Shown here: positions 22,900 to 50,917 of the stretch, piece by piece
Numbering within the stretch: the stretch's first letter is position 1
Layout of the letters: each line of letters opens with the position of its first letter
IMG/VR virus record: IMGVR_UViG_2706796139_000001
Location: 114,895-178,894 of that record
Strand: one strand, 5' to 3'
DNA: 64,000 nt
Source of the DNA: Pseudotevenvirus miller
Lineage: Duplodnaviria; Heunggongvirae; Uroviricota; Caudoviricetes; Straboviridae
Position numbers and translations under genes: made by a program
The notes under the pieces: generated by a model
Told to the model about the DNA's origin: nothing
What the model saw: only the letters and a program-made list of their open reading frames with translations
The model's database searches: none

Positions 22900-22927
22900 A
22901 AAAGGCAACCTACGGGTTGCCTTTTTT
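22900..22927 (+). terminator. Intrinsic terminator after gp23
   Basis: AAAAGGCAACC-TACG-GGTTGCCTTTTTT. Confidence 0.9.
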
Positions 22928-22979: not shown

Positions 22980-24278
22980 ATGAGTGATAAACACTACACA
23001 ATTCACAAGTTGATGCGTCAGTCTACGCTTCCGTCTGGTAAACGCGAAAAGGTTATCAACGAAGCAACAGGCACGACAGATATCAACGTACAGAACACGC
23101 GCCCAGAACTGGTTTCTTTGACTCGCGCTGTGAACAACCTGATCTATCATGAACTGGTTGCTGTACAAGAAACGGATTTACCAGTAGCTACCCTTTTCGG
23201 TGTTCGTTATCGCAACCCTAATGGGGATATGACTTTCTCCAGCGCTGCAACCTATTCAGGCCGAATCTCTGGACGTACAGGCATTGATGATATCGATCTG
23301 GCTAAAGCATACGTTAAAGGCGACTTATTCAAGCACGATGTCACTGACGTTGTTTATGAGGTTATCGCACCGATTACCCTGAACACACTGGATACTGATA
23401 AAGACACTGCGATCATGAAAGCAGTTTTCCAAAGCAAAATTCGTTTAGTTAGCGAGGCTGCGGATACTTCGAAGTATGAAACCAGTGAAGATATCGCATC
23501 AACTTCTTTCCAGATGGATCGCTGGAATATTCCGGTACGCTCGCGCAAGTTTAAAACCGAAATGACGGTTGAACTGATGCAGGATCTGGAAGCGAACCAG
23601 TTTGAAGCCGATGGGGTTATTGAAGATATCCTGGGAACCGTGGCAAGTGAAGAAGTAAACAAAGACATCATCCAGACTCTGATCACCGTATCTAAGCGTT
23701 ATAACGTTAACGGCGTTGTCACTGATGGTATTTTTGACGCTACCACTTCATACACTGCTGCTGATGCTCCGGCATTAGGTCGTATGCTGTATCAATTAGC
23801 GTGTGAAATGGGGCAGGAAATGAATAAAACCACTTCATTTGATGCTACCTACGTCCTTTGCTCCGCTCGCGTCACAGGCATTCTGGCTGCGTCTGGTTGG
23901 ATGACAGAAACTGATGAACAACACCCGCTGGCAACTGGCAAGCTACAGAACGGTTATTACGTCTATACCGACACCAATACACCGTTTGATTATCTGCTGA
24001 CAGGTTGTAAGTATGATCTGGGTGATATGGATCACGTTGGTTCTCTGTTCTTCACCCCGTACACCGAAGCCGACGAAGCAGGTTCAATCAAAGTATCCGT
24101 TGATCCGGCATCATTACAACCGAAAGTCGCTATTCTGATGCGTTACGGTCTGTCTGTGAACCCATATACAACTGATTCCGATTCTGAACGCCTGATCAAA
24201 GGTGATGATTGGTCTAACCTTGCAGGTAAATCTAAACTGAGTCAGATCGTAGGTGTTAAGTTACCTACACTGGGTTAA
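22980..24278 (+). CDS. 24: Capsid vertex protein gp24
   Basis: RPELVSLTRAVN.LIY, gp23-like fold motifs, VDP.SLQP...L.RYGLSVNPY; late promoter TGTAAATA 22933-22940. Confidence 0.92.
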   Translation: MSDKHYTIHKLMRQSTLPSGKREKVINEATGTTDINVQNTRPELVSLTRAVNNLIYHELVAVQETDLPVATLFGVRYRNPNGDMTFSSAATYSGRISGRTGIDDIDLAKAYVKGDLFKHDVTDVVYEVIAPITLNTLDTDKDTAIMKAVFQSKIRLVSEAADTSKYETSEDIASTSFQMDRWNIPVRSRKFKTEMTVELMQDLEANQFEADGVIEDILGTVASEEVNKDIIQTLITVSKRYNVNGVVTDGIFDATTSYTAADAPALGRMLYQLACEMGQEMNKTTSFDATYVLCSARVTGILAASGWMTETDEQHPLATGKLQNGYYVYTDTNTPFDYLLTGCKYDLGDMDHVGSLFFTPYTEADEAGSIKVSVDPASLQPKVAILMRYGLSVNPYTTDSDSERLIKGDDWSNLAGKSKLSQIVGVKLPTLG

Positions 24279-24299
24279 TCTTTATGTTTTGAGAAGACC

Positions 24300-24328
24300 A
24301 TTATAGTAATTAAGATCAGAAAGGTCAA
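24300..24328 (-). promoter_or_regulatory. Leftward sigma70-type promoter on left palindrome arm, firing antisense into gene 24
   Basis: Minus strand TTGACC (24328-24323) - 17 nt - TATAAT (24305-24300); no minus-strand gene downstream. Confidence 0.65.
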
Positions 24329-24513
24329 ATGAGCGAAGCGAATTTTCACGAACGAAGTGAGTGATAGGGTAAGAACTACATAATTATATTTTTATATTTA
24401 TATATAGAGAAAAATGTAGTTTTTGGTATGGTTTTTAACCAGATGTAAACCAACATTCACTCACTACGTTCGTTCATGTACTCGCTTCGCTCGTGGATTT
24501 GACTTCTTGATCT
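24313..24513. repeat. Long imperfect inverted repeat with AT-rich core (candidate replication origin)
   Basis: Six complementary blocks: AGATCA/TGATCT, GTCAAAT/ATTTGAC, GAGCGAAGCGA/TCGCTTCGCTC, GAACGAA/TTCGTTC, AGTGAGTGA/TCACTCACT, AACTACAT/ATGTAGTT around an almost all-A/T 24382-24413 core. Confidence 0.9.
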
Positions 24514-24526
24514 AACTGGTTATAAT
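24499..24526 (+). promoter_or_regulatory. Sigma70-type promoter of uvsY
   Basis: TTGACT - 16 nt - TATAAT upstream of RBS GAGGTG. Confidence 0.75.
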
Positions 24527-24549
24527 GTTACTTTGTTTTGAGGTGATTC

Positions 24550-24972
24550 ATGGCTGAACTAAAACTTGAAGATTTACAGGCTGAACTCGAAAAGGATATG
24601 TTGATTGATCCTCTGAAACTACAGAGTGAATCAGCAGATATTCCTAAGATTTGGTCAAAATGGCTTCGATATCATTCGAATGCTAAGAAAAAACTGATCC
24701 AGCTACAGGCCAGGAAAGAAGCAGACGTGAAAGAGCGTTTGTTGTACTACACTGGACGGCATGAAACTGAAATGACGGATGTCATTTACACAGGTTCAGG
24801 TGAAATTAAGATCGCGATCAACGGTGACCCGAAAATTGTTGAGGTTAACAAACTGATTCAGTATTTCGAACTGATTGCAGAATTCACCAGTAAGGCGCTG
24901 GACATTGTTAAGAACAAAGGATATTCTATCAAAAATATGTTGGAAATCCGAAAACTTGAGAGTGGTGCATAA
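24550..24972 (+). CDS. uvsY: Recombination mediator UvsY
   Basis: LEDLQ.EL.KD..ID..KLQ.E, SKWL, YY.GR, K..G..IK.M.E.R..E.G. Confidence 0.92.
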   Translation: MAELKLEDLQAELEKDMLIDPLKLQSESADIPKIWSKWLRYHSNAKKKLIQLQARKEADVKERLLYYTGRHETEMTDVIYTGSGEIKIAINGDPKIVEVNKLIQYFELIAEFTSKALDIVKNKGYSIKNMLEIRKLESGA

Positions 24973-49181: not shown

Positions 49182-49493
49182 ATGAGCCGTGAAATTTTAC
49201 TCCCTGCTGCAAACGCTATCCACGCTGAAACAATGGAATACATGGAAAAGTTCGTCGAGAATGACAACACGGACATTATCACGCCAATCCATTTGGACGC
49301 ACTGGAAAACAAACTGCATAAGAAAATTAAAGATCAGTTCCCAGAAAAAGTTAGTCGCAATTTTGTTCGTCAGGAAATTGTAGCAATGATCCTCAAACAC
49401 TACGGGATCGAAATGTTCGGTGTTAAACCGATTGCATCAAAAAGCAATGAAATTTCTGAAAAGACGATTAAGAAATACGCTAAGAAGAAATGA
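49182..49493 (+). CDS. 55.2: gp55.2-like protein (T4 homologue inhibits host topoisomerase I)
   Basis: DIITP..LD..E..LH, SRN.VR, FGV, EISEKTI match T4 gp55.2 pattern. Confidence 0.78.
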   Translation: MSREILLPAANAIHAETMEYMEKFVENDNTDIITPIHLDALENKLHKKIKDQFPEKVSRNFVRQEIVAMILKHYGIEMFGVKPIASKSNEISEKTIKKYAKKK

Positions 49494-50917
49494 TTTTTAA
49501 AACGATTGAATGTGTTCCGTCAAGTGGTAAGACAAAGGCGATTCTGAACCATATCAATCAAACGGGCGAAAAAGCAATCATAGCGTCGATTTCCATGATG
49601 TTATCAAAACAGTCTTATGACTATTACATCAATGAAGTTAAAGGGAAACGCGCTGTGATTGTGGACACGGATCACCGAACAAAACGAACCAACAACGATG
49701 CGCTGAAAGAAGTCATAAAAGATTTTGATGTGATTTTTATCACCCATGCAGCGCTAAAAAACATCGATGACTTTGATTTGTATAAGGATTATTCCTTGTA
49801 TATTGATGAAGTTCCCGATCTGGTATCGTTCGAAAGTCTGCGATTTAATAGCAATATCAAGCACATACGCGAGATTTGCTTGCCGTTTAGTTGCAATGCC
49901 GATGATATCGTTGATTTAAAACTTGACGAAGAAAAACGAGAACTGGTTACACGATTGGCCTACGATGGATTACGCAAACGTGATGATATAGCCGTTAAGA
50001 TGTTTCCACTATACCGCGCTCTGTTGGGCGAAATTCCGGTAAAGATGCAATGCAGCGATTCGGGCTATGTTTGCTACTTCGTAGAAGACCATGATGTTAG
50101 TCAGTGGAAGTTTAAAAATGTGACCATTGCTTCATCCAATATCAGAGATACGATTACAGGCAAGATCCTGAACAAGTTTCATGATGTGGAATTCGAAGAA
50201 TCACCATTACAAAAGCTGGTTGACTTCAAGCAATACAAAAACACAGGGCGCATACATATACATGTGCTCGCAGAGGGGGATTATTCGCGTTATACGGGCG
50301 ATCTTTCTCAATCTGGGACGACAGTATACACTCAGATTAAAAAACGCGTAGAGGCGCTTCTGGGAGGCGAACAGTTCATATACTGTACCAATACGTACCG
50401 ATCGAAATTTAGCGACGGGCAGGAAATCCCGTATAACTCGCATGGTTTGAACTTCTATTCAAGCTATACAAACGTAGTTGCTTTGTTCAGTTACAACCCG
50501 TTACCCTGGCTGCGTCAAATGCTCCGAGCGGTTGCGGTTTCCTCCGGTTTAGAAGAGGAAGAATTAGTTGATGCGTATGTTGTCAGTAAATATTATGAAC
50601 CAGCTTTCCAGTTATGCGCACGTTCTGATATTCGACACAATAACAGCAAACGTAAAATTAATTTGTTTGTTCCTGATATGCGGTTAGCGAAATACATGAA
50701 GGAGAATTATTTTCCTGATGCTGTAATCGAAACCTCAGAAGCAGTACAAACGAAAAGGCAGCGCAAATCATTTCAGTCTCTTTTCCAGATGACAGCACAA
50801 GAAATTAATGCTTTCAACTGGTATAAAAAGAAACACAAATTAGATTTCGCTAATCCTCTTCACCACGCGATTGTAAAAGACTGGCTTAACAATTACCGTG
50901 AGAAAAAGGCGACTTGA
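49490..50917 (+). CDS. SF2 (DEAD-like) helicase-domain protein
   Basis: Walker A PSSGKT, Walker B LYIDEVP, motif VI-like FQLCARSDIR. Confidence 0.7.
   Translation: MIFKTIECVPSSGKTKAILNHINQTGEKAIIASISMMLSKQSYDYYINEVKGKRAVIVDTDHRTKRTNNDALKEVIKDFDVIFITHAALKNIDDFDLYKDYSLYIDEVPDLVSFESLRFNSNIKHIREICLPFSCNADDIVDLKLDEEKRELVTRLAYDGLRKRDDIAVKMFPLYRALLGEIPVKMQCSDSGYVCYFVEDHDVSQWKFKNVTIASSNIRDTITGKILNKFHDVEFEESPLQKLVDFKQYKNTGRIHIHVLAEGDYSRYTGDLSQSGTTVYTQIKKRVEALLGGEQFIYCTNTYRSKFSDGQEIPYNSHGLNFYSSYTNVVALFSYNPLPWLRQMLRAVAVSSGLEEEELVDAYVVSKYYEPAFQLCARSDIRHNNSKRKINLFVPDMRLAKYMKENYFPDAVIETSEAVQTKRQRKSFQSLFQMTAQEINAFNWYKKKHKLDFANPLHHAIVKDWLNNYREKKAT

Follow-up and report, generated by a model that had tools for sequence, protein, structure and literature searches.

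A three-copy AT-cored element of RB43-type (Pseudotevenvirus) phages as a candidate family of replication-initiation sites

Introduction

The gap between the capsid vertex gene 24 and uvsY in the phage genome analysed here holds one of three copies of a repeated non-coding element, and on balance we lean towards reading the three as a family of replication-initiation sites in RB43-type (Pseudotevenvirus) phages, of which this gap holds one. As part of this reading, and with about the same confidence, the three copies are regarded as positional counterparts of the T4 origins oriF, oriG and oriE. A sequence-only reading of this DNA had proposed that the gap carries a symmetric, transcription-activated and possibly cruciform bidirectional origin. 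The origin-like part of that proposal has gained circumstantial support, which consists of three syntenic copies, extreme duplex melting, a covarying hairpin, the neighbourhoods of T4 origins, the lack of MotA, and the copies in mobile islands. A cruciform of the whole element was not sustained as a conserved feature: the long symmetry occurs only at the uvsY copy, and compensation is found only in the inner stem.

To our knowledge, the only experimentally known origins among the T4-type phages are those of T4 itself, and MotA is missing from most T4 relatives. A literature search on origins or repeats of RB43 or Pseudotevenvirus phages returned nothing relevant. The 165-bp module described here, which 57 sequenced phages carry in three copies each, is a concrete and easily cloned origin candidate, and its natural stem types A, B and C provide built-in variants for the comparison of specificity. 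Its copies in islands with candidate defence-type genes and serine recombinases suggest a new way to sense or exploit infection by T4-like phages. The element is also relevant to phage therapy, since many phages of this kind (from Enterobacter, Klebsiella, Cronobacter and Citrobacter) were isolated for that purpose.

The gp24-uvsY Gap

The window, that is, the whole 64,000-nucleotide stretch of DNA that was analysed, comes from a phage genome of 180,219 bp (positions 114895-178894) that belongs to the RB43 group, Pseudotevenvirus; coordinates below are those of the window unless genome positions are named. The gp24-uvsY region is 99.5% identical to that of Citrobacter phage Miller. The gene-free gap of about 270 bp that had been described between the two genes was borne out, with a length of 271 bp (24279-24549) and no plausible ORF. 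The imperfect inverted repeat of about 200 bp reported within it was recovered by block matching and by folding (z about -10). The segment 24295-24530 gave a z of -9.7 when folded as DNA and of -9.6 and -10.7 when the two strands were folded as RNA, and none of 200 shuffles reached the native fold energy.

The outer end of each arm had been said to be a near-consensus promoter pointing away from the centre, and this is correct for both, which match the sigma-70 consensus at 11 of 12 positions. The leftward promoter, described as lacking a gene and running antisense into gene 24, indeed has no plausible ORF downstream. The GATC noted at each end of the palindrome is present and falls within the two promoter spacers, and the Dam that the phage was said to encode corresponds to a D12-class Dam-like methyltransferase gene at genome positions 153883-154593. 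The features of the region are as follows.

22900-22925: hairpin AAAAGGCAACC-TACG-GGTTGCCTTTT with an 11-bp stem, between genes 23 and 24; A-run before, T-run after
22980-24278, + strand: gp24 capsid vertex gene (late gene; phrog_138), to which the leftward promoter is antisense
24299-24323/24503-24527: inverted-repeat block 1, 72% match
24300-24328, - strand: leftward sigma-70-type promoter TTGACC-17-TATAAT, 11/12 consensus, with a spacer GATC at 24314-24317
24330-24494, + strand: repeated element of about 165 bp, one of three genome copies
24331-24341, + strand: left outer box GAGCGAAGCGA, with the GCGAAGC minihairpin motif on the top strand
24331-24341/24482-24492: inverted-repeat block 2, 11/11 match
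24348-24364/24457-24473: inverted-repeat block 3, 94% match
24349-24361, + strand: left inner box CGAACGAAGTGAG
24371-24396/24399-24424: core block of the inverted repeat, 73% match, with an A/T centre
24374-24381, + strand: left arm AACTACAT of the covarying 8-bp inverted repeat, type A
24382-24413, no strand: nearly invariant A/T core, with its flanks one of the three stretches where the genome duplex is least stable
24414-24421, + strand: right arm ATGTAGTT of the covarying 8-bp inverted repeat
24422-24459, + strand: variable segment specific to the phage type, its 3' end being the conserved TTTTTAACCA
24460-24472, - strand: right inner box, CGAACGTAGTGAG on the bottom strand
24482-24492, - strand: right outer box, GAGCGAAGCGA on the bottom strand
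24499-24526, + strand: rightward sigma-70-type promoter of uvsY, TTGACT-16-TATAAT, 11/12 consensus, with a spacer GATC at 24509-24512
24550-24972, + strand: uvsY recombination mediator gene (phrog_231)

Three Copies at Syntenic Sites

Exactly three copies of the element exist in the genome, near 34.2, 105.0 and 139.3 kb, and all point the same way. The first copy lies between rnh (-) and gene 55 (+), the second between gene 3 (-) and a 263-aa ORF (+) that is followed by gene 2, and the third between gp24 (+) and uvsY (+). The genome is organized in large strand blocks (- to 34 kb, + to 68 kb, - to 105 kb and + to 177 kb), and the copies at rnh|55 and gene 3|ORF lie at its two major transcription divergence points. 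Three copies in the same orientation were likewise present in the six relatives that were fetched in full, and the three syntenic sites were filled in all eight relatives examined. In total, the element was detected at 161 places in 57 of 57 Pseudotevenvirus records, or about three in each, and is annotated in none of them; it was not found in other phage genera.

Two records deserve separate mention. That of Enterobacter phage HK6 was opened inside the element of the uvsY copy, and about 55 nt are repeated at both of its ends, which look like an assembly break at a repeat and not like biological ends. NZ_JBHSCL010000010.1, a contig of 178,077 bp labelled Flagellimonas marina, also has three full-length copies; its length is that of a Pseudotevenvirus genome, and it most likely represents phage DNA that entered a bacterial assembly.

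Duplex Stability and the Sister Genus

At window sizes of 40, 60 and 100 bp, no duplex in the 180-kb genome is less stable than the cores of the three copies, which take the first three places, about 4.5-5 sd away from the mean. Over 40 bp, their dG is -36 to -39 vs. a genome mean of -53.7 (sd 3.4), and in seven of seven Pseudotevenvirus genomes the cores rank in the top 3-4 for low stability. The 60-mer dG is -72 to -78 in the first 100 nt of each outward transcript region, against -60 in the core and a genome mean of -80.5. This melting rank is striking but not diagnostic of an origin, because the proven T4 origins oriF and oriG are not extreme in this respect (melting z of 2.0 and 1.6) and T4 has comparably extreme AT stretches that are not known origins. 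The least stable 60-mers of T4 (e.g., near 24165, 71865, and 107244) do not coincide with its annotated oriF and oriG.

In the sister genus Slopekvirus, Enterobacter phage phiEap-3 carries in the same three gaps an element of about 85% AT; its copies are similar to each other and unrelated to the element described here, and the three gaps are again the three least stable sites of the genome. Two of them are also its densest GATC windows, with 9 sites per 250 bp vs. a mean of 1.65. Each gap was observed to contain 5-11 GATC, often as TAGATCA or GATCTATAAT, together with promoter-like sites.

Boxes, Stem Types and Core

Each copy is organized as four boxes with the consensus GA(G/A)CG(A/T)AG(C/T)GA, two direct copies to the left and two inverted copies to the right, at a spacing of 17-21 bp, around an asymmetric and nearly invariant A/T core (TATATTTTATATATAGAGAAAA). 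Across 26 copies the boxes are invariant, and they are conserved in sequence with no compensatory change; in RB16 and Lw1 two box variants exchange places, and the arms of the rnh|55 copy do not pair strictly. Because the boxes are uncompensated, their variants can be swapped and the rnh|55 arms are only loosely matched, it is the box motif and not the long palindrome that constitutes the conserved feature. The symmetry looked for in RB43-like relatives was thus found only in part: the element is kept and its inner 8-bp stem is compensated, but the 200-bp symmetry is missing at the other two copies, where box motifs are repeated and not strictly paired. The GCGAAGC mini-hairpin motif highlighted in the sequence-only reading is not enriched genome-wide (26 sites vs. 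about 22 expected), but 8 of the 26 genome sites lie within the three elements.

In the inner 8-bp stem, six of the eight pairs change on both sides, and 94% of the cells are paired. Three stem types can be distinguished, type A (AACTACAT/ATGTAGTT), type B (ATGTACTG/CAGTACAT) and type C (ATGTCTAC/GTAGACAT), which amount to only three or four independent events. The core type is uniform over the three loci of a phage and the outer parts are specific to the locus; EC-W2 is mixed (C, B, C). Further copies that were detected in a scan of IMG/VR were all of type B. The phages KPN-12i (type A') and GAP161 (type B), with a median protein identity of 98.4%, have different core types on identical flanks, and therefore the cores are swapped by very local recombination or gene conversion.

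Several other candidate features of the element were rejected. A second hairpin in the variable segment, TGGTT-TTT-AACCA, is on inspection not conserved between the types, and neither is a mini-ORF (MVFNQM) in the core. A search of the core turned up no convincing inward promoter, MotA box, DnaA box, IHF site or conserved late promoter. The sequence TATAAATA occurs on the minus strand of two copies, at differing positions.

Single Copies in Bacterial Islands

Full-length single copies of the element were also detected in bacterial DNA, with stem types A, B and C all represented. Their locations are as follows.

Enterobacter quasiroggenkampii chromosome: type B, with ABC-3C components, a resolvase and an HNH protein next to it
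MAG contig: type C, with an ABC-3C module 95% identical to the Enterobacter one, the homology stopping at the edge of the element
E. coli CX12 and CX08, island in malX: type B
pTR_1_35, circular, 10.8 kb: type A
Citrobacter freundii plasmid: full-length element copy

In CX12 and pTR_1_35, the element is situated 190 bp downstream of a YagK/YfjJ gene (G2P-related, Rep-like), with serine recombinases nearby. The islands encode ABC-3C components (MC5, CTD9), serine recombinases, an HNH protein and an SMC-like ATPase of 898 aa, among which the ABC-3C components and the SMC-like ATPase are candidate defence-type genes; PADLOC named none of the island genes. One island copy has a box extended to a perfect 5-bp stem, CTCGC-GAA-GCGAG. 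A scan of bacterial genomes with a 17-mer box gave about as many matches as expected by chance and no full-length copies.

Outward Promoters and GATC Sites

The hexamers of both promoters at the uvsY copy and both of their GATCs are invariant in 14 related phages, and the adjoining spacer bases are variable. A GATC falls in the spacer of only three of the 23 sigma-70-like sites of the genome, each of them next to a copy of the element. The promoters lie outside the repeated unit, at distances that differ among the copies. Judged from the sequence, promoters and GATCs are features of the uvsY copy, and partly of the rnh|55 copy, but not of the repeated unit itself. GATC is over-represented in the genome as a whole (1060 sites vs. 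about 678 expected from base composition). Inside the element it was observed in 1 of 26 copies, about one per copy being expected; a site within 50 bp is present on the left of all 26 copies and on the right of 17.

No terminator-like site was found within the gp24-uvsY gap. The hairpin at 22900-22925, where the annotation of Miller places a terminator on the "-" strand, looks like a bidirectional terminator and is a possible end point for the predicted leftward antisense RNA.

The same promoters could instead belong to an infection-responsive operator, which we consider rather unlikely. The boxes would then bind a phage or host protein controlling the flanking promoters, Dam methylation of the spacer GATC would couple promoter activity to the replication state, and the islands would have acquired a copy by which the arrival of the phage is sensed and their cargo turned on. 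It fits this reading that all three copies are located between outward promoters, that the box sequences are invariant and not merely complementary, that the spacer GATC is restricted to the promoters flanking the element, and that a conserved ABC-3C module borders on the element in two islands and is transcribed away from it. However, the distance from box to -35 varies from 2 to about 45 bp among the copies, the gene 3 flank has a late-type promoter instead, and no candidate regulator was found. An operator also leaves unexplained why the most meltable core should recur in two genera with unrelated sequences, and why an 8-bp stem should covary over a separation of 32 bp.

Comparison With T4 Origins and Proposed Mode of Initiation

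In the T4 record, oriF is positioned at the start of uvsY and its primer is the uvsY transcript. The other two have primers antisense to the genes that contain them: oriG is found within the late gene 34, at a distance of 2.2 kb from rnh, and oriE within gene 5, 3.4 kb away from gene 3. [quoted passage not shown] The element resembles oriF, oriG and oriE in its location at the uvsY start, next to rnh and near gene 3, in its association with transcription divergence points, and in that there would be several origins per genome, the positional match being inexact, within 0-3.5 kb of the shared neighbour genes. An A+T-rich unwinding element is essential in the T4 origins, and the element likewise has an AT core; however, the T4 unwinding element is downstream of the origin promoter, whereas the AT core here is upstream of and between the outward promoters. 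The T4 origins have no motif in common and use MotA-dependent middle promoters, whereas three copies of one element and sigma-70 promoters of the host type are found here, and the boxes and the compensated stem are a further difference from T4.

The claim that the site is unlike the MotA-dependent origins of T4 has stood up well. MotA (MotA_activ) and AsiA were detected in T4 and were absent from this genome, RB43 and phiEap-3, and therefore T4-type middle-promoter origins would be unavailable to these phages.

Under the favoured reading of the copies as origins, the AT core would act as the unwinding element. Transcription from the outward promoters on both sides would generate negative supercoiling and help to melt the core, which the 8-bp inverted repeat on its flanks and the minihairpin boxes of CGAAG type might hold open. 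The boxes, located on the top strand at the left and on the bottom strand at the right, would mark a bidirectional start for the replisome, the primase or a box-binding protein. At the uvsY copy, the rightward RNA would be the uvsY transcript and the predicted leftward RNA would be antisense to late gene 24. The outward transcripts themselves may prime the leading strands, a step suggested because the same two kinds of primer RNA are recorded for T4 oriF and for oriG/oriE. Islands with one copy would be amplified, and possibly transduced, upon phage infection, which would be a natural version of the T4 origin-plasmid assay. Only tentatively do we extend this to the proposal that bacterial defence islands and small circular elements captured a phage origin module of interchangeable specificity types, so that the machinery of an infecting phage amplifies and perhaps transduces the island (origin mimicry by satellites and defence cassettes of T4-like phages), and that RB43-type phages, lacking MotA, start replication at a symmetric, sequence-defined module.

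The layout has likenesses outside the T4-type phages as well. Several short repeat boxes beside an AT-rich region are shared with iteron-type origins such as lambda ori and plasmid oriV. In the oriV of IncQ plasmids (RSF1010), with its ssiA and ssiB sites, and in G4-type signals, an AT-rich opening region lies beside inverted hairpin signals on opposite strands, from which priming proceeds outward in both directions, and small GC hairpins such as d(GCGAAGC) occur at single-strand initiation sites. The CGAAG/GCGAAGC motifs of the element, on the top strand at the left and the bottom strand at the right, would give a similar layout if they fold as hairpins; there is no sequence similarity to IncQ or G4, and neither a dedicated primase nor an iteron-binding Rep was identified in the phage. 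The oriS and oriL of herpes simplex virus are AT-centred palindromes with inverted binding boxes, located between divergent genes and numbering three per genome. This likeness is an analogy only, as virus and sequence are unrelated and no UL9-like origin-binding helicase is tied to the element.

Other Readings of the Element

A programmed hairpin or cruciform break site was also considered, at which the palindrome would be extruded, or folded on the lagging strand, and cutting by endonuclease VII or gp46/47 (SbcCD-like) would seed recombination-dependent replication, with uvsY adjoining; we regard it as improbable. A strong, far from random palindrome and a conserved inner stem with compensatory changes speak for it, as does the fact that T4 replication is mostly recombination-dependent, its origins coinciding with recombination hotspots (see also PMC3016281). 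The long-range symmetry, however, is restricted to the uvsY copy, and an 8-bp stem with a 32-nt AT loop would make a poor cruciform. Moreover, this reading overlaps that of an origin instead of excluding it.

Satellites that carry cos and pac sites mimic the packaging sites of their helper phages, and the single copies in small recombinase-bearing islands and in the 10.8-kb circle, which share the sequence types of the phages, could be viewed in the same way, as terminase-recognised sites imitated for encapsidation. Such a packaging or hitch-hiking signal seems very improbable, given that three dispersed copies and extreme meltability are atypical of pac sites, that the headful packaging of T4-type phages requires no site, and that the HK6 record, although broken inside a copy, shows a 55-nt overlap of the kind expected where an assembly breaks at a repeat.

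We give equally little credence to a structured RNA, whether as a terminator or stabiliser of the late gene 23-24 transcripts or as an "anti-late" antisense system directed against gene 24 from the leftward promoter. The RNA fold z of -9.6 and the lack of another terminator after gene 24 would suit the former, and the latter could draw on a conserved leftward promoter that has no downstream ORF and faces a hairpin 1.37 kb away. The other two copies are nevertheless located in divergent gaps with no upstream gene reading in, and no match at E <= 1 was obtained when the three loci were scanned with Rfam 15 (two unrelated sub-threshold hits fell elsewhere). In addition, mismatches in the arms show no strand bias (13 G.T and 20 A.C), which argues against RNA structure. 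An antisense role of the leftward RNA would in any case be compatible with the origin reading.

Two classes of repeat were rejected. The PeSL cassettes of RB49/phi1-type phages (Arbiol et al., 2010, PMC2839356) consist of a terminator hairpin fused to an early promoter and are located in variable regions, where they precede small genes; the element is, like them, a repeated non-coding cassette associated with early promoters in T4-type genomes, but the homology among its copies stops inside the boxes with the promoters outside, it has no GC hairpin with a T-run, and it is fixed at three syntenic sites. A MITE-like mobile element would account for the 11-bp terminal inverted repeats, but there is no flanking duplication and the three sites are filled in every genome examined.

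Search for an Initiator Protein

A box-binding initiator was sought among the phage proteins and none was identified; no homologue of YagK/YfjJ was found in the phage, and the YagK/YfjJ gene adjoins the element only in two of the bacterial elements. A screen for proteins that track the stem type, based on the comparison of KPN-12i with GAP161, yielded many mosaic candidates, the best of which (phrog_7424) fails across the 57 phages.

Upstream of gene 34, a helicase-like ORF of 475 aa (phrog_2467) is encoded on the + strand at window positions 49490-50917. It has no Pfam match of its own, some of its homologues match PF00270 (DEAD helicase), and its PDB matches are weak and SAP-domain-like (E 0.03-0.14). 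As an origin binder it was rejected, its homologues being widespread in T4-like phages of Aeromonas, Proteus, Providencia and Vibrio that lack the element.

The 263-aa ORF (phrog_7322; genome about 105170-105961) was likewise rejected as the initiator: its model (pLDDT 70) consists of small beta-barrel domains and C-terminal helices, a fold with no informative match in PDB or AFDB. This ORF lies between genes 3 and 2 in the opposite orientation, directly downstream of a copy of the element, and is conserved in Slopekvirus, Yersinia phage JC221 and Pantoea phage Phynn.
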